Shown here: in pieces, positions 5,128 to 14,653 of the stretch
Position numbering within the stretch: position 1 is the first letter of the stretch
Layout: each line of letters begins with the position of its first letter
Virus record (IMG/VR): IMGVR_UViG_3300028392_000036
Coordinates: 64,001-128,000 of that record
Origin: a virus
Reading direction: 5' to 3' (one strand)
Length of the DNA: 64,000 nt
Notes under the pieces: generated by a model
Told to the model about the DNA's origin: nothing
Databases searched by the model: none
Seen by the model: the letters and a program-made list of their open reading frames with translations, nothing else
Program-made: the position numbers and the translations under genes

Positions 5128-6366
5128 ATGAAAAAAATTGGATTTATTGGTATCGGCAAACTGGGACTTGATTGTGCCGAAGTTATGGCAGAGAAGCATG
5201 AAGTCAGAGGCTACGATATTTACCCACGAGTCAGCGACTCAGTAAAAGTTTGCGATATTGACGAATTGGTCAATGAAAGCGAATGGATTTTTATTGCAGT
5301 ACCCACCCCACACGCAGAAGGCTACGATGGCTCAGTGCCAAGCTCGCATATGGAACCTCGAGACTTTGGCCACGATGCTGTGATTGATGCCATTAACAAA
5401 GTTAATCAACATGCCAAGAGTCCTAAAAAGGTTGTGTTAATCTCTACAGTGCTTCCTGGTACCACACGTACCAAGTTTGTTCCTCTACTAGACAAGCAAC
5501 ATCAGTTTTTGTACAATCCTTACCTGATCGCCATGGGCTCAGTCAAGTGGGATATGGCCAATCCTGAAATGGTTATTATTGGTACAGAAGACGGTGAGCT
5601 CACAGGTATTGCAGGCGAATTGATTGAATTGTACAAAACAATAATGAACAACGATCCACGATATGAAATTGGCACCTGGGACGAATGTGAAGCTATCAAG
5701 ATTTTCTACAACACATACATCAGTGCCAAAGTTGGTATTGTTAATATGATCCAAGATTTTGCCATGAAGATTGGCAATATCAATGTTGATGTTGTTACCA
5801 ATGCATTGGCTCGCTCAACAATGAGATTGCAAGGTCCCAAGTATATGACAGCAGGTATGGGCGATGCTGGCGCTTGCCACCCGCGTGACAATATTGCACT
5901 GCGTTGGTTGGCAGAACGCTATGAAATAGGCTATGATTTGTTTGACACAATTATGCATGCTCGTGAAATCCAAGCTAAAAACTTGGCCCTGTTCCTTGTA
6001 GAACAAGCCAAACAAAATGGTATGAGTGTTGTGATTCACGGCAAAGCATACAAACCTGATGTAGAATACTGTATTGGTTCATACAGCACCTTGGTAGGAC
6101 ACTATGTTAAAGAAGCAGGATTTGGTGTAAGGTATATTGACCCAATAGCAGATGATTCTACTGAAGTTGTTTCGGAAATAGTTGGGCCAGCAGTCATACT
6201 ATGGGCACACAATCGCAAAATCACTTACGAATACACAGGCGAACAAAAAGATACTCAGGCCTATTGTGAAATCCCAAAAGGTAGTATTATCGTTGATCCA
6301 TGGCGCAAACTTCCACAGATTGAGAATTTGACTGTGGTACATTATGGCAACACCAGAAATTCTTAA
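5128..6366 (+). CDS. UDP-glucose/GDP-mannose dehydrogenase family protein
   Basis: Rossmann GIGKLG, IAVPTP, STVLPGTT, YNP, E.IK.FYNTY...K, catalytic GACHPRD and AYKPD. Confidence 0.9.
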   Translation: MKKIGFIGIGKLGLDCAEVMAEKHEVRGYDIYPRVSDSVKVCDIDELVNESEWIFIAVPTPHAEGYDGSVPSSHMEPRDFGHDAVIDAINKVNQHAKSPKKVVLISTVLPGTTRTKFVPLLDKQHQFLYNPYLIAMGSVKWDMANPEMVIIGTEDGELTGIAGELIELYKTIMNNDPRYEIGTWDECEAIKIFYNTYISAKVGIVNMIQDFAMKIGNINVDVVTNALARSTMRLQGPKYMTAGMGDAGACHPRDNIALRWLAERYEIGYDLFDTIMHAREIQAKNLALFLVEQAKQNGMSVVIHGKAYKPDVEYCIGSYSTLVGHYVKEAGFGVRYIDPIADDSTEVVSEIVGPAVILWAHNRKITYEYTGEQKDTQAYCEIPKGSIIVDPWRKLPQIENLTVVHYGNTRNS

Positions 6367-9285: not shown

Positions 9286-9544
9286 TTGGATACGCAGTGA
9301 TTACAAAACTAACCCACTTAGGTTCGTCGTGGAAGTACTGGCTTGGGCTGTGTCTATTGGGTGCAGTATTACGATGGCTGCCACTGTACCTAATCCCCCT
9401 CTTGTGGTACTTTACCCTATATGGATTAGTGGTTGTGCTATGTATGCTTGGGCTAGTTGGACTCGTAAATCGTTTGGTATGTTGGCCAACTACTGCCTAC
9501 TAGTCAGCATTGATACTGTGGGTTTGCTACGTATGATTTTGTAA
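9245..9544 (+). CDS. Small membrane protein
   Basis: Three hydrophobic segments; overlaps the end of uvsE. Confidence 0.65.
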   Translation: MNNFMNNIFLNIFDWIRSDYKTNPLRFVVEVLAWAVSIGCSITMAATVPNPPLVVLYPIWISGCAMYAWASWTRKSFGMLANYCLLVSIDTVGLLRMIL

Positions 9545-9573
9545 CAAAATTGTAACACAAATTAGCCTAAATA
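9539..9573 (+). promoter_or_regulatory. Pho-box-like direct repeat plus TAAATA upstream of pstS
   Basis: TTGTAACAAAA-TTGTAACACAA (11-bp period), then GCCTAAATA; near-identical copy at 11528-11562. Confidence 0.75.
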
Positions 9574-9596
9574 ATTGTCTAACAAGGAGACTTTGA

Positions 9597-10601
9597 GTGA
9601 AACAATTATTTGCAATCTTACTAGCGTCAATATCAATCTCAGCATCAGCACAGACTATAACAGGTGCTGGCGCAACATTCCCATACCCCATCTATAGCAA
9701 GTGGTCAGAACTTTACAACAAAGAAACTGGCGTAGCACTCAATTACCAATCAATTGGTTCCAGTGGCGGCATTCGTCAAATTGATGCCAAAACAGTGACC
9801 TTTGGTGCAACTGATGCACCTGTAGCCGGGGACAAACTAGACAAAAATAGTCAAGTACAGTTTCCCGCTATCATTGGCGGAACAGTTCCTATTGTTAACT
9901 TGGATGGCTTCAAGCCCGGAGAACTACGTATTACAGGTCCTGTAATGGCAGAAGTGTTCTTGGGTGAAATCTCCAAATGGAATGATCCAAAGTTGGCGGC
10001 ACTTAACCCAGGTAAAAAATTACCTGACTTAGAAATTACTATTGTGCATCGTGCAGATGGTTCGGGTACTACATTTAACTGGACAGATTATTTGTCATCT
10101 ACCAGCGCCAAGTGGGCCGACAAGGTTGGCAAAGGTGCCGCAGTCAAGTGGCCAGCCGCAAGTTCAGTAGGTGGCAAGGGCAACGAAGGTGTTGCCGCTA
10201 ATGTACATCGTGTTAAAGGCTCCATTGGCTATGTTGAATATGCTTATGTTAAAAAGAACAATTTGACTTTCTTGCAATTACAAAACAAGTCAGGCAAATA
10301 TGTCAGCCCAGATGATCTAACATTTGCTGCCGCGGCAGCCGGTGCTGATTGGTTCTCAGTTCCTGGTATGGGTGTGAGCATTGTAGATCAGCGTGGTGAT
10401 ACAGTATGGCCTGTAAGCACAGCCAGTTTCATCATCATGTACAAAGACCCCACAGACAAGAAAGCCAGCCAAGACACATTGAAGTTCTTTGATTGGGCAT
10501 TCAAGAACGGTAAGAAAGCCGCAGAGGAATTAGACTATGTGGCATTACCAGACATTCTAACAAAACAAATTCGCGAGCGTGTGTGGAGTCAGATCAAGTA
10601 A
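9597..10601 (+). CDS. pstS: Phosphate ABC transporter substrate-binding protein PstS
   Basis: Signal peptide, GAGATFPYP, YQSIGSSGG, FGATD, HRADGSGTT, GKGNEGVA and IGYVEYAY. Confidence 0.97.
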   Translation: MKQLFAILLASISISASAQTITGAGATFPYPIYSKWSELYNKETGVALNYQSIGSSGGIRQIDAKTVTFGATDAPVAGDKLDKNSQVQFPAIIGGTVPIVNLDGFKPGELRITGPVMAEVFLGEISKWNDPKLAALNPGKKLPDLEITIVHRADGSGTTFNWTDYLSSTSAKWADKVGKGAAVKWPAASSVGGKGNEGVAANVHRVKGSIGYVEYAYVKKNNLTFLQLQNKSGKYVSPDDLTFAAAAAGADWFSVPGMGVSIVDQRGDTVWPVSTASFIIMYKDPTDKKASQDTLKFFDWAFKNGKKAAEELDYVALPDILTKQIRERVWSQIK

Positions 10602-10649
10602 TTAAACCGACCACAACGATAGAGTGGCGCTGGAACTCGTAACCAGCAG

Positions 10650-10677
10650 ATACCCCAAATTTTTGGGGTATTTTTTT
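10650..10677 (+). terminator. Rho-independent terminator after pstS
   Basis: ATACCCCAA/TTGGGGTAT stem followed by a T-tract. Confidence 0.8.
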
Positions 10678-10717
10678 GTCCGTGTTTAATGATTTGATCG
10701 CAGAGTTAAATATCTAT

Positions 10718-10882
10718 ATGAGTTGGTTTAAGCGAATTCCACACAGATACCCTCCACAAACGCCTGCCTCTGCACCACATAGAACTAGCCCTGCCACTGA
10801 TCGAGCACTAGAAGAGTCTAAATTGCTGGGTCCAAAATCCCGTAAAAAAACTGTCAAAAAGCCCCCACTAAATACTGAATGA
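10718..10882 (+). CDS. Small basic hypothetical protein
   Basis: ATG 5 nt after TAAATA; stop overlaps the next start (ATGA). Confidence 0.5.
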   Translation: MSWFKRIPHRYPPQTPASAPHRTSPATDRALEESKLLGPKSRKKTVKKPPLNTE

Positions 10883-11541
10883 AACCCACCATAGCCCTAT
10901 TTTTGCACGACCCCAAATGTAGTGTACAAAGTGGCAATGGGCTCATGCGAGCCCTAGGCGATCATTACAAGTTCAAAATATTTGGTAAAAACAAACTAGA
11001 AGATGTGTTCTTTGACGACGTAGACATGATTGCTGTACCCGGTGGCTTTGGCGATGCTGATTCATTTGACGGACTGTTCAAACACAATGCTGAACGTGTG
11101 CAACAATTTCTAGAACGTGGCGGTCGATACTTGGGTATTTGCATGGGTGCATACTGGGCCGGCAGCGAATATCTCAACATCTTGGATGGTGTGGATGCTG
11201 TGCAGTATATCCGTCGCCCTGGCACAGACACACATAGACCACATGCTAAAAACCTGCCTGTGTTGTGGCAAGATCGTTGGGGCAATATTGAGCCCTGGAA
11301 AATGTTCTTTTACGATGGCTGTGCATTGGTAGGGGACAAAACCAAGTTTCGAACCATGGCCACATATATGAATGGAGACGCCATGGCAATTATACAAAAC
11401 AATATTGGACTGATAGGTTGTCATCCTGAAAGCGAGCAGTTCTGGTATGACAGTTACTCCTGGATGCGGGGTCGATATCATAGAGGTCAACATCATACAT
11501 TGTTGTTAGACTTTGTGGATCAAATGTTTGTAACAAAATAG
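10879..11541 (+). CDS. Class I glutamine amidotransferase-like protein (BPL_N type)
   Basis: VPGG, GGRYLGICMGAY nucleophile elbow and HPE. Confidence 0.75.
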   Translation: MKPTIALFLHDPKCSVQSGNGLMRALGDHYKFKIFGKNKLEDVFFDDVDMIAVPGGFGDADSFDGLFKHNAERVQQFLERGGRYLGICMGAYWAGSEYLNILDGVDAVQYIRRPGTDTHRPHAKNLPVLWQDRWGNIEPWKMFFYDGCALVGDKTKFRTMATYMNGDAMAIIQNNIGLIGCHPESEQFWYDSYSWMRGRYHRGQHHTLLLDFVDQMFVTK

Positions 11542-11562
11542 TAACACAGATCCGCCTAAATA
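11528..11562 (+). promoter_or_regulatory. Pho-box-like direct repeat plus TAAATA upstream of plcP-agt
   Basis: TTGTAACAAAA-TAGTAACACAG...GCCTAAATA, same spacing as the pstS copy; ATG 4 nt later. Confidence 0.75.
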
Positions 11563-11566
11563 TTAG

Positions 11567-12361
11567 ATGCAGAAAACGTATCGCAGTATTTTTATCAGTG
11601 ATGTACACCTGGGCACAAGAGACTGCAAGGCAGAAGAACTAAACAATTTCCTAAAGCACAACTCCTGCAATACTTTATATCTTGTGGGGGACATTATTGA
11701 TGCTTGGAAAATGCAACAAAACAAATTGCGATGGAAACAAAGTCATACCAACGTTGTCCGTAGGGTTCTTGGTCACGCTAAACGTGGCACTAGGGTTGTA
11801 TACGTGGCTGGAAATCATGACGAATTCCTGCGTCCGATGATACCGTATGCTGCCACATTTGGTACTGTGGAAATATGTAATCAATGCGAACATGTGGGTG
11901 CAGACGGCAAACATTATCTTGTGGTGCATGGCGACCTGTTTGATGGTATCACCCGACTGGCACCATGGTTGAGTTTTTTGGGAGACAAAGCATATGATTT
12001 TATCCTGGGGCTTAATAGTAGATTTAATTGGATCCGCCATCGTATGGGTTTTGGTTATTGGAGTCTTAGCCAGTTTCTTAAGCATAGGGTCAAAAAAGCC
12101 ATTGACTTCATGTTTCACTTTGAAAGAAACCTTGCGGCCTACTGCAAAAAAAGAGGATTTGATGGCGTGGTCTGCGGTCACATACACCACGCAGAAATAA
12201 AAGAAATAAACGGTGTAGTATATATGAATGACGGCGACTGGGTTGAAAGTTGTACTGCACTTGTAGAACATCATGACGGGCGTTGGGAAATCGTAACATG
12301 GACACAAAAAAATGACCAAGAAGATATTGATAATAACAGACAACTTGCCGGATCAAATTAA
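11567..12361 (+). CDS. plcP: PlcP-type phospholipase C (LpxH-like metallophosphoesterase)
   Basis: SDVHLG, LVGDIID.W, GNHDEFLR (His, not the Arg of LpxH GNRD), HGDLFD, YWSLS, CGHIHHAE and NDGDWVESCTALVE; followed by a GT4 gene. Confidence 0.82.
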   Translation: MQKTYRSIFISDVHLGTRDCKAEELNNFLKHNSCNTLYLVGDIIDAWKMQQNKLRWKQSHTNVVRRVLGHAKRGTRVVYVAGNHDEFLRPMIPYAATFGTVEICNQCEHVGADGKHYLVVHGDLFDGITRLAPWLSFLGDKAYDFILGLNSRFNWIRHRMGFGYWSLSQFLKHRVKKAIDFMFHFERNLAAYCKKRGFDGVVCGHIHHAEIKEINGVVYMNDGDWVESCTALVEHHDGRWEIVTWTQKNDQEDIDNNRQLAGSN

Positions 12362-13325
12362 TGGCGTGGTTACCACTTACAAGAACATTGAGGCTTGTGC
12401 GGTACTGGATGGTTATCATGTTGATTATATTGATCCCGGGCGGTTCCGCTACATTAATTGCCCTCGCTACCACGAAGTCAAGATTGCCTATCCCCGGAAT
12501 CTGGGCGCGAAGATTGAGGAGATTGCTCCGGATTATATCCACATCGCCACCGAGGGTCCTCTTGGTTTGTGGGCTCGAGCATATCTTTCACTGGGCAATA
12601 TTCGTCACAATACCGCTTATCATACTAAGTTTCCAGAGGGACTTAAGAAACTATTTGGGATTCCTGAATTCGTAACCTGGCGGTTTGTACGCTGGTTTCA
12701 CAAACACTCAGGCAAGGTACTAACCACGACAGATTCAATGGTTCGAGAATTGCAAGCACATGGATTCAATGGCGAAGTGATTCCGTGGACACGTGGTGTT
12801 GACCGTGAGATATTCCACCCTGGCTATCGTGATCGAGAAGATGACCACAAAATATTATTATGCGTTGCCCGTGTGAGTAAAGAAAAGAACTTGGAAGACT
12901 TTTTTGAATTACAATATCCCAAGAGTCGCAAAATCATGGTAGGTGATGGCCCTATGCTAGAGAAATATCGAAAGCAGTATCCTGATGTGGAGTTTGTAGG
13001 ATTTAAGACAGGCACAGAACTAGCAGAATATTATGCCAATGCTGATGTGTTTGTGTTTCCAAGTCAGTGGGAAACATTTGGCATTGTGATGATTGAAGCC
13101 ATGGCCTGTGGTACCCCTGTAGCCGCATATCCATGCCAAGGTCCCGAAGATGTTGTGGAACCAGGTGTGACTGGTTATTTAGAACAAGATCTAGCCACTG
13201 CGGTGCATCGTTGTATCGGGCTCAACAGGGACCAAGTATTAGAGGGCAGCCAACGCTGGAGTTGGGAACGAGCCTGGCACATATTCCGAGACAATCTCAC
13301 TCCCAACCACTTGTGGACCAAATAA
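12312..13325 (+). CDS. GT4 glycosyltransferase, Agt-like glycolipid synthase
   Basis: ILIITD...QINGVVTT, HIATEGPLG, TAYHTKFPE, WTRGVD, RVSKEKNLE and FPSQWETFGIVMIEAMACGTPVAAYP; overlaps plcP. Confidence 0.82.
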   Translation: MTKKILIITDNLPDQINGVVTTYKNIEACAVLDGYHVDYIDPGRFRYINCPRYHEVKIAYPRNLGAKIEEIAPDYIHIATEGPLGLWARAYLSLGNIRHNTAYHTKFPEGLKKLFGIPEFVTWRFVRWFHKHSGKVLTTTDSMVRELQAHGFNGEVIPWTRGVDREIFHPGYRDREDDHKILLCVARVSKEKNLEDFFELQYPKSRKIMVGDGPMLEKYRKQYPDVEFVGFKTGTELAEYYANADVFVFPSQWETFGIVMIEAMACGTPVAAYPCQGPEDVVEPGVTGYLEQDLATAVHRCIGLNRDQVLEGSQRWSWERAWHIFRDNLTPNHLWTK

Positions 13326-13343: not shown

Positions 13344-13952
13344 ATGAAAGAAATACTACAAACACTTCGCGAGCAACGTTGGGACGATCATCGTTACTAT
13401 CATCACAGTAGAATCAATCAATTTTTACACTTAATCTCAGCCTTAAGTTTCTTGATTGCCTATGTTTATCTGTTTATTGATCCTGTTGTGAGTGCATGGA
13501 TTGCTTGGTTGATTGCCATGACTACTCGTCAAGCCGGGCACTTTTTCTTTGAACCACACGGCTACGATGAATACAACAAGGCCACATTTGAACACAAAGA
13601 AAAAATCAAAATTGGTTTTAACTTAAAACGCAAACGGGTGTTGCTCACATGCTGGGTCGCAGTGCCTGCCCTGGCGTTCTTTGATGCTGAACTAATGAAT
13701 CTGTTAATACCCAACAACGACCCAATGACATTTGTAAACCGTGTGGGTATGGGATGGTTATGGCTGGGTGCGGCTGGTGTGTTGTTTAGAATGATCCAAT
13801 TGACCGCACTACAGAGCAGACGGGTTGCGTTAGTTTGGTGCTTGAAGATCTTGACTGATCCATTTCACGATGTATGGATCTATCGCAAGAGTCCCATATA
13901 CTTGATGCAAGGACAGTTGATTGACCCTGATTTACGTCAAGATTACTCTTGA
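13344..13952 (+). CDS. Membrane protein, Mpo1/DUF962-like
   Basis: YYHH..N..LH and Q.GHFFFE His motifs with about four TM segments. Confidence 0.55.
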   Translation: MKEILQTLREQRWDDHRYYHHSRINQFLHLISALSFLIAYVYLFIDPVVSAWIAWLIAMTTRQAGHFFFEPHGYDEYNKATFEHKEKIKIGFNLKRKRVLLTCWVAVPALAFFDAELMNLLIPNNDPMTFVNRVGMGWLWLGAAGVLFRMIQLTALQSRRVALVWCLKILTDPFHDVWIYRKSPIYLMQGQLIDPDLRQDYS

Positions 13953-14653
13953 TTGCGAAGTCTAGCAAGTCCTAGTATTCTAAACAGGCTGAGCCACATC
14001 CAGCCTATATCGAATTCCCACCAAGTCTTAGAGAGGCGGGCACTCGCTGGTGCCAGGTGGTGGTTGTTGTGCAGTTCTTCGCCGCCAATAACAATGCCCC
14101 AAGGACTAATATTACGACTACGATCTTTAGTTTCGCCATTTCTATATCCTATCCAATGTCCAATGCCGTTTATGACTCCAGCCGCCCAGAATGGAATCCA
14201 TATCATTTGTATACCCCATATAACCGGACCCCACCAACCAAACACTAGGGTGTTGAGCACAAGGAGAATGCCAATGCCAAGTCTACTGTGAGGCTGGTAT
14301 ATGTGAAGCTCCATCCAATCAGCAGGAGTACCAACACCGTATGCGTCAACCATGACACGATCTTTTGATGCTTCATGATACAGTACCGCTCCTTTAAAGA
14401 AAACTCTCTTGATTCCGTACACGTGAGGTGAGTGCGGATCACCTTCTGCATCACTGAATCTGTGATGCTTGCGGTGTATGGCCACCCATTGCTTGGTTAC
14501 CATGCCTGTGGTCAACCATAACCAGGCTCTCATGAAGTGTTCAAGCACAGGATGAAATTCTATACCTCGGTGTGCTTGGCCACGATGTAGGTACAACGTG
14601 ACACAGATGATAGTAATGTGTGTCATTACCAGTGTTGCGATTAGTTCTGTCAT
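13943..14653 (-). CDS. Membrane fatty acid (delta-9 type) desaturase
   Basis: Three His boxes (HRGQAH, HRKHH, HNNHH), plus DPHSP and WWEFDIGW. Confidence 0.92.
   Translation of the reverse strand: MTELIATLVMTHITIICVTLYLHRGQAHRGIEFHPVLEHFMRAWLWLTTGMVTKQWVAIHRKHHRFSDAEGDPHSPHVYGIKRVFFKGAVLYHEASKDRVMVDAYGVGTPADWMELHIYQPHSRLGIGILLVLNTLVFGWWGPVIWGIQMIWIPFWAAGVINGIGHWIGYRNGETKDRSRNISPWGIVIGGEELHNNHHLAPASARLSKTWWEFDIGWMWLSLFRILGLARLRNQE

Follow-up and report, generated by a model that had tools for sequence, protein, structure and literature searches.

Phage genes of PstS, PlcP and Agt type behind shared promoters of Pho-box form: a candidate phosphate regulon in a freshwater jumbo phage

In many lakes and oceans the growth of bacteria and the DNA synthesis of phages are both limited by phosphorus. 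Phages are known to respond with genes for phosphate uptake (pstS, phoA) and by recycling nucleotides, and membrane phospholipid is one cellular phosphorus store. Does a phage also draw on that store? The question is raised by a locus in bases 64,001-128,000 of the 142,901-bp IMG/VR record IMGVR_UViG_3300028392_000036; this whole stretch of 64,000 nucleotides is called the window here, and positions are counted from its first base. In it, the phosphate-binding protein gene pstS and the open reading frame (ORF) starting at 11567 are preceded by the same 35-bp element. An earlier reading, made from the letters only (the sequence-only reading), had proposed that both copies are Pho boxes read by the PhoB protein of the host, that ORF 11567 encodes the phospholipase PlcP rather than the lipid A enzyme LpxH, and that the gene overlapping its end encodes the glycosyltransferase Agt. 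From the analyses given below we consider it probable that pstS, plcP-agt (with or without a following DUF962 gene) and a structured RNA constitute a phage regulon driven by host PhoB, serving phosphate capture and lipid swapping.

Both copies of the element were found where the sequence-only reading had placed them (Table 1) and with equal spacing, the half-sites standing at -28 and -17 relative to TAAATA. Alignment of the two copies revealed that their first 21 bases agree except for one T/A and that both terminate in GCCTAAATA. The 5' part consists of half-sites with an 11-bp period, TGTAAC/TGTAAC before pstS and TGTAAC/AGTAAC before ORF 11567; read as 7-bp repeats these are TTGTAAC-AAAA-TTGTAAC and TTGTAAC-AAAA-TAGTAAC, respectively, and resemble CTGTCAT. 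A search allowing up to three mismatches recovered both copies and no further site, either in the window (100 shuffles gave an expectation of 0) or in the whole 142,901-bp contig, where the phased half-sites also occur nowhere else. The uniqueness claimed for the element accordingly holds for the 35-bp whole and for the phased half-sites, and fails for the final 6-9 bases (TAAATA), which are generic and stand before about 18 ORFs. The element is therefore a composite of Pho-type direct repeats and a generic phage late-type promoter core.

The two promoters differ in what follows them. The plcP copy overlaps the stop codon of the preceding ORF (TAG, 11539-11541), and the plcP ATG lies only 4 nucleotides (nt) past TAAATA and has no ribosome-binding site, so that the plcP mRNA is probably leaderless. 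The pstS leader is 23 nt long and carries the ribosome-binding site AAGGAG at 9584-9589. The best sigma-70-like match of the region, TTGATA-16-TATGAT on the plus strand at 9510-9537 (10 of 12 positions), ends 2 nt before the pstS Pho boxes and could be a separate early promoter; a scan of the region for consensus sigma-70 sites gave no excess over shuffled sequence.

Table 1. Features of the locus and its surroundings, in window coordinates
Feature	Position	Strand	Remarks
UDP-glucose dehydrogenase (UDP, uridine diphosphate)	5128..6366	+	5 kb upstream; PHROG 9148 at 5e-85; Pfam UDPG_MGDP_dh
pstS promoter	9539..9573	+	TGTAAC 9540-9545 and 9551-9556, TAAATA core 9568-9573
pstS, periplasmic phosphate-binding protein	9597..10601	+	GTG start; signal peptide
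Structured RNA	10600..10683	+	two hairpins with 9-nt loops, then intrinsic terminator 10648-10673 and T-run; covariance model R1
Small ORF of 54 amino acids	10718..10882	+	own TAAATA at 10707
BPL_N / class-I glutamine-amidotransferase-like protein	10879..11541	+	own TAAATA at 10869; Pfam PF09825, 2.6e-9
plcP promoter	11528..11562	+	TGTAAC 11529-11534, AGTAAC 11540-11545, TAAATA 11557-11562
plcP-like metallophosphoesterase (phospholipase C type, LpxH-like fold)	11567..12361	+	Pfam Metallophos PF00149
agt-like glycosyltransferase of family GT4	12312..13325	+	Pfam PF00534, PF13439, PF13692 (GT4/GT1); overlaps plcP by 50 nt
Mpo1-like / DUF962 membrane protein	13344..13952	+	weak Pfam PF06127 match
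Fatty-acid desaturase	13943..14653	-	Pfam PF00487; own TAAATA

Since homologues of ORF 11567 are called LpxH in their source annotations, and its best structural matches and best NCBIfam hits are LpxH, the ORF might encode a true LpxH (UDP-2,3-diacylglucosamine diphosphatase) for lipid A synthesis, with the GT4 enzyme modifying lipopolysaccharide. The scores are low, the LpxH models being matched below their cut-offs (48.4 bits against 134 for NF003743 and 35.4 against 190 for TIGR01854) and a crystallised LpxH (PDB) at just 23 bits. The phage PlcP as query found matches at 40-57% identity in 109 of the 301 alphaproteobacterial genomes sampled (a count that takes in one unpublished genome, G243, on which nothing else claimed here depends) and in 77 of 251 sampled from Pseudomonadota. 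In the Pseudomonadota search, which was run to E 1e-6, all full-length matches had E 1e-52 or better and below these there were only two pieces of one broken gene; this empty gap indicates that true LpxH is not picked up by the phage query. Four genomes (G490, G434, G350 and G372) each carry a true LpxH (330-340 bits) plus a separate protein 57% identical to the phage PlcP. Alphaproteobacteria, in which the phage-like protein is common, make lipid A via LpxI and not LpxH.

In the maximum-likelihood tree a long branch with 99% support separated LpxH from the rest; the phage sequences grouped in a single clade (99%) within the PlcP-like family, beside an alphaproteobacterial clade and a clade from LpxH-bearing genomes. 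The phage PlcP was 45-57% identical to proteobacterial proteins encoded directly upstream of an agt-type GT4, and in 28 of the 30 best alphaproteobacterial loci a GT4 gene lay directly downstream on the same strand, its product 39-45% identical to the phage GT4. With this grouping, with the coexistence of both proteins in the four genomes and with a plcP-linked GT4 as the partner, a true LpxH is highly improbable, and the proposal that ORF 11567 groups with PlcP-type proteins is borne out. Its assignment as a PlcP-family phosphoesterase, distinct from LpxH, is well supported by these sequence comparisons.

Alignment of 25 homologues indicated that the metal-binding motifs DxH, GDxxD, GNHD/E, H and GHxH were invariant, the residues being D12, H14, G41, D42, D45, G82, N83, H84, D85, H121, G204, H205 and H207. 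The sequence-only reading had noted GNHD in the ORF and a GT4 gene running over its end; both were found, at residues 82-85 and at 12312-12361, respectively. Of the two motifs proposed to tell PlcP from LpxH, GNHD was seen in 97 of 97 PlcP-like sequences and GNRD in five proteobacterial LpxH; the motif is supportive but alone not decisive, because one Bacteroidota LpxH-like protein also has GNHD. In an AlphaFold model (predicted local distance difference test score 80) a phosphoesterase core carries a long helical insertion, and the 25 best PDB matches of this model were all LpxH, most of them with bound lipid or inhibitor. The predicted LpxH-like fold fits a lipid-directed enzyme. Like LpxH, the phage protein has a calcineurin-like phosphoesterase core into which a helical lipid-binding lid is inserted; it is about 18% identical to LpxH, belongs to a separate paralogous family and has GNHD in place of the GNRD of proteobacterial LpxH. 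The ratio of non-synonymous to synonymous substitution rates (dN/dS) of plcP between phages was 0.02-0.07, with synonymous sites near saturation; plcP is under strong purifying selection.

The sequence-only reading of the ORF at 12312 as Agt agrees with the searches in three bacterial genomes (G039, G001 and G434), in each of which the GT4 adjoining plcP matched the phage GT4 best (E 1e-68 to 1e-73), while the next GT4 stood at E 1e-29 or worse. The gene is thus orthologous to the plcP-linked agt, beyond general GT4 similarity. Its EX7E motif is ETFGIVMIE (residues 254-262), and its dN/dS between phages was 0.13-0.18. The PstS equivalog NF008171 (NCBIfam) was matched by the product of the upstream gene at 386 bits against a cut-off of 339, as was PHROG 5385; two Pseudomonadota genomes have a chromosomal pstS with 75-76% identity to the phage gene, whose signal peptide is cleavable and of the Gram-negative type and whose dN/dS between phages was 0.09. 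By sequence criteria the identities of the three genes as PlcP-type, Agt-type and PstS are well supported.

The element was also followed in related phages. An IMG/VR scan with PlcP peptide words gave 206 contigs encoding a relative, of which 80 were kept, with PlcP 77-96% identical. In the 958 kb of these 80 related loci the pattern TGTAAY-N20-23-TAAATA occurred 72 times, namely before plcP (59), pstS (4), other ORFs (4) and no ORF (5); three of the four "other ORF" sites precede an ORF of 52 amino acids immediately upstream of plcP, and the four pstS sites come from all four related loci that contain pstS. Half-sites were found in 44 of 48 distinct plcP promoters, phased at -39/-38, -28/-27 and -18/-17 from TAAATA, and in just 7 of 68 other TAAATA promoters; only one of these has two phased sites, and the gene behind it is a second plcP paralogue. 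Most relatives retain TGTAAY and TAAATA upstream of plcP though the neighbouring upstream gene varies. A single half-site with TAAATA showed no genome-wide enrichment in the complete relatives, and only the phased double sites were specific. The boxes are thus conserved among related phages, and this conservation is specific to the promoters of pstS and plcP. That these genes share a control element of Pho-box form kept by selection is well supported.

Which protein reads the repeats is a separate matter. In relatives L011 and L040 the same slot holds the canonical TGTCAC-N5-TGTCAT. Bacterial pstS genes 52-78% identical to the phage gene mostly have TGTCAY repeats upstream which, where measured, end 10 nt before the -10 hexamer; the corresponding gap in the phage is 10-11 nt and so matches within 1 bp. 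One bacterial pstS promoter (L159) resembles the phage promoter through to GCCTAAAGT, where the phage has GCCTAAATA. The upstream regions of bacterial plcP showed no clear boxes, in flanks that were short and largely coding. The repeats might instead be read by another host regulator of the OmpR family or by a phage DNA-binding protein, and so mark a phage-timed class of genes. The deviation of TGTAAC from the TGTCAY of the closest bacterial pstS genes would fit such a reader, as would the placing of the boxes on a phage-type promoter core and the lack of enrichment of the motif in a metagenome-assembled genome (MAG) that holds two related phage contigs. We judge it quite unlikely, given that the repeats occur only at pstS, plcP and the RNA described below, the first two being bacterial Pho-regulon genes, that some relatives have the canonical half-sites in the same slot, and that the period and the distance to the -10 agree with PhoB promoters. 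Moreover, no OmpR/PhoB-type (winged-helix) DNA-binding domain was found in the contig or in two complete relatives by a search whose control was positive in 10 of 14 reference genomes. From promoter architecture, host PhoB is the likely reader.

Further promoters of this kind were noted in relatives. The second, divergent plcP paralogue mentioned above (49% identical; L068:8287-9027, plus strand) stands behind two phased boxes and TAAATA. In the close relative G687 (L194:1501-1995) a double box and GATAAATA lie ahead of an ORF of 143 amino acids, a possible additional gene of the phage Pho regulon. In L020, L024, L026 and L029 neither TAAATA nor boxes precede plcP, and an 8-bp inverted repeat (GCAAGGTG ... 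CACCTTGC) lies about 30 nt upstream.

The promoter core is best seen against the type of phage. The CheckV completeness of the source record is 41%, and relatives with the same genes measure 353,123 bp (98% complete) and 367,104 bp (100% complete); from these sizes the source contig, and the window with it, makes up only part of the genome of a T4-like freshwater jumbo phage, about 350 kb in size. The contig encodes a T4 gp44-like clamp loader. A gp55-type late sigma is encoded in complete relatives (L189:1057-1923); the 98%-complete relative G684 has one (phrog_12791, E 7e-79), and relatives G683 and G685 gave weak T4 gp55 matches; a BLAST search with T4 gp55 gave no match in the source contig, which is 41% complete, and the sigma was found only in the more complete relatives. 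The GC content is about 44%, the 64-kb window holds no tRNA genes, and no deposited phage matched the region when searched at the nucleotide level.

The contig contains 90 TAAATA sites, of which 18 have an ATG or GTG 3-9 nt further on that opens an ORF of at least 40 amino acids, many of these being the longest ORFs on their strand. The distance from TAAATA to ATG is mostly 4-8 nt, and examples of such starts are 3533 (minus strand), 10718, 10879, 11567, 14653 (minus strand), 14713 and 36395 of the window. The occurrence of TAAATA before about 18 ORFs, together with the gp55-type sigma of the relatives, points to a shortened T4-type late promoter core, and from its distances to the start codons it looks like one that often yields leaderless or near-leaderless mRNA. 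Like the T4 late promoters (TATAAATA, gp55/gp33/gp45), it is a core lacking a -35 element before many genes, in a phage whose complete relatives have a gp55-type sigma. It differs from these in being shortened to TAAATA, in standing usually just 4-8 nt from ATG and in being joined to upstream activator-type repeats at the pstS and plcP loci, a combination not known to us for T4 late promoters.

A third kind of unit carries the same promoter. Starting 0-7 nt after the pstS stop, an RNA with the loops AACGATAGA and AACTCGTAA was recognised (Table 1). A covariance model built from 13 copies was run on 62 sources and found 26 copies, each on the same strand as plcP (among them L007:7187-7263, L016:7186-7235, L022:2779-2827 and L049:4174-4222). 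In 25 copies, 96.9% of the cells were paired and 8 of 9 pairs had changes on both sides, in an alignment fitted to the model, which somewhat favours structure; these values were reached in 0 of 500 shuffles, and shifted controls paired at 20-52%. Rfam has no family that matches the RNA. The copies stand a few bases after the stop of pstS, agt or a plcP-linked gene of GT2 type, or alone 6-7 nt behind a double-box TAAATA promoter, a placement by which the RNA is always part of a Pho-box unit. The stand-alone copies suggest that pstS is a removable cassette, present or absent between promoter and RNA. The RNA may be a small RNA derived from the 3' untranslated region (3' UTR), a stabiliser or a processing signal; we regard it as a candidate for a phage small RNA, or an element of the 3' UTR, under phosphate control. 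Pairing between the two loops (ACGA with UCGU) was considered and rejected, as it is not kept in divergent copies.

The neighbouring genes suggest a wider set of lipid functions. The DUF962 gene follows agt in close relatives at 92-97% identity and is probably the third gene of the plcP-agt transcript, and the desaturase belongs to the lipid gene island. The UDP-glucose dehydrogenase could, by its family assignment, supply UDP-glucuronate for a glucuronosyl-diacylglycerol product. About half of the 80 phage loci have a GT4 gene inside the fetched flank, often overlapping plcP in the same way. Many relatives have, after plcP, a GT2/GT21-like transferase in place of the GT4 and then a desaturase (L047:4766-5482 and L047:6105-6809 in the 353-kb relative), so that the transferases appear to be swapped around a constant plcP; a GT2/GT21-like partner also fits diacylglycerol glycosylation. 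In many relatives the BPL_N/amidotransferase-like gene is again found close to plcP, on one side or the other and on either strand.

These neighbours bear on what the pair is for. The desaturase, the DUF962 protein and the UDP-glucose dehydrogenase suggest broader remodelling of lipid and envelope, the TAAATA core predicts late expression regardless of phosphate, and the boxes are missing in some relatives. All this would suit a pair that remodels the envelope for another end, either receptor masking against superinfection or membrane stability over a long jumbo-phage cycle, with repeats that were inherited together with a captured operon. We regard this as unlikely, since the repeats stay phased despite saturated synonymous sites and are common to pstS, whose sole known role is phosphate capture, and to the unrelated RNA unit, unlike a passively inherited promoter.

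The regulon driven by host PhoB would work as follows. It would comprise three kinds of unit, each headed or preceded by the composite promoter, in which two TGTAAY repeats with an 11-bp period would stand in for the -35, one helical turn upstream of TAAATA. In a phosphate-starved host, phosphorylated PhoB (PhoB~P) would bind the repeats and raise transcription. PstS would then increase phosphate capture, while PlcP would remove the phosphate head groups from host glycerophospholipids and the resulting diacylglycerol would be glycosylated by Agt to a phosphorus-free glycolipid. The membrane would thereby be kept intact and lipid phosphorus freed for phage nucleotide synthesis; the TAAATA core would probably also permit late expression driven by the phage sigma. 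The binding of PhoB, the activities of the enzymes and the benefit to the phage are inferred from gene identity and promoter form, and the freeing of lipid phosphorus with the membrane kept would be the most economical reading of the locus.

Several observations weigh against it. The half-site is TGTAAC, as compared with TGTCAY at the closest bacterial pstS genes. In about 10 of the 80 related loci no TAAATA or Pho-box promoter precedes plcP, many loci have plcP and no GT4 within the flank, and the tree was built without any named, experimentally characterised PlcP or Agt sequence. The -10 partner of the repeats is a motif of phage late type, and a T4-type late sigma is not known to offer PhoB an interface. 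Predicted phage Pho boxes often fail and are unreliable without binding assays (PMC10976474). In its strongest form the proposal would have a dual-input promoter, with PhoB~P acting on the gp55-type RNA polymerase, and a phosphate-controlled small RNA, within a three-part viral Pho regulon that turns membrane phospholipid into nucleotide phosphorus; this form we hold to be tentative and on balance doubtful.

How do these genes compare with known systems? In bacteria, plcP-agt is needed for the formation of glucuronosyl-diacylglycerol at low phosphate, and the pair has been studied in Sinorhizobium/Ensifer meliloti, roseobacter MED193, Pelagibacter HTCC7211, Pseudomonas aeruginosa, Agrobacterium tumefaciens and Methylosinus trichosporium OB3b (PMC9239053). 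The phage locus resembles the bacterial operon in the order of plcP and GT4, in the Pho-type promoter ahead of them and in having all catalytic motifs. Its identities to the bacterial homologues (45-57% for PlcP, 39-45% for Agt) compare with 51% between two characterised PlcPs (PMC9239053). It differs in that the phage genes form their own clade, are under purifying selection in hundreds of phage contigs and have the 50-nt overlap of plcP and agt; in the late-type TAAATA as -10 and the apparently leaderless start; and in the extra partners DUF962 and desaturase, with GT2/GT21-like transferases in some relatives.

Pho control of a phage pstS is known from cyanophages, as the sequence-only reading had stated: host PhoB was reported to control pstS of P-SSM2 and to bind promoters of S-PM2d (PMC10976474). 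With the Pho-regulated genes of these phages (P-SSM2 pstS and phoA; S-PM2d) the present locus shares pstS behind host-type Pho boxes, several genes per box type and a T4-like myovirus background. The box here is of the TGTAAY/TGTCAY type, whereas that of cyanophages is PyTTAAPyPy(T/A), and the host is probably a heterotrophic proteobacterium and not a cyanobacterium; beyond what is reported for cyanophages, the regulon here also takes in enzymes of lipid remodelling and a structured RNA. The presence of pstS in pelagimyophages has been published (PMC12379486).

A viral PlcP-Agt system had been suspected to be undescribed. No paper linking PlcP to a virus was found in a literature search, and PHROGs has no family for the phage PlcP; homologues are nonetheless present, unrecognised, in isolated phages. 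Among deposited phages, a protein search found PlcP homologues that are 48% identical in Pelagibacter phage Mosig, 36% in Synechococcus phage S-SRM01 and 27% in an uncultured phage of 595 kb, and that are labelled LpxH where annotated; in those papers on Mosig and S-SRM01 that were read, the plcP-like gene is not discussed. Like the phage studied here, Mosig EXVC030M (Mosig_00119, Mosig_00120) and S-SRM01 (QPX48289) are T4-like and have a PlcP-like gene. In Mosig, an isolated SAR11 phage, the plcP-like gene lies head to head with pstS, and the intergenic region (L192:5842-5991) has a similar design, with the 11-bp repeats TTTAACA-AAAA-CTTAACA and an ATAAATA-N5-ATG start. The Mosig and S-SRM01 copies have no adjacent agt and fall outside the jumbo-phage clade, which suggests, on tree position, separate and repeated captures of the PlcP gene by phages. 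Virome surveys file 'lpxH' under auxiliary genes of lipopolysaccharide synthesis (PMC9611531, PMC10653327), and it is under lpxH that such plcP genes appear to be filed.

The host is probably a heterotrophic proteobacterium, as stated above. The Haliscomenobacter MAG G003 holds two contigs of the phage family (C110 = L086 and C31 = L089), with PlcP identities of 97% and 85%. Haliscomenobacter was considered as host and rejected: the MAG's own PlcP-like gene is just 42% identical, an agt orthologue is absent, and the box motif shows no enrichment, with 19 sites as compared with 44 in a control and no site preceding Pho genes. The two contigs most likely came into this MAG by an error of binning on similar base composition and do not point to a host. 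A methanotroph host was also considered: a search for pmoC/AmoC found no match in the contig, four relatives and the three genomes with the closest pstS; the control genomes were equally blank, hence this negative is weak.

The locus presents a new viral use of known enzymes and of a known type of switch, with an RNA attached. If the proposed regulon is correct, phages of heterotrophic bacteria would tap membrane phospholipid via a stolen two-enzyme pathway that is switched by the starvation sensor of the host, and the 'lpxH' entries of viromes would need to be read again. Lipid remodelling would become an added viral effect on the cycling of phosphorus and carbon in aquatic systems. The promoter would be a compact natural case of host-sensor input on a phage promoter, and the module would direct attention to the uncharacterised RNA tied to it. 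Should the stronger form also hold, action of PhoB~P on a gp55-type holoenzyme would be an activation route new to T4-type late transcription, and the three-part regulon would span a large clade of freshwater jumbo phages.

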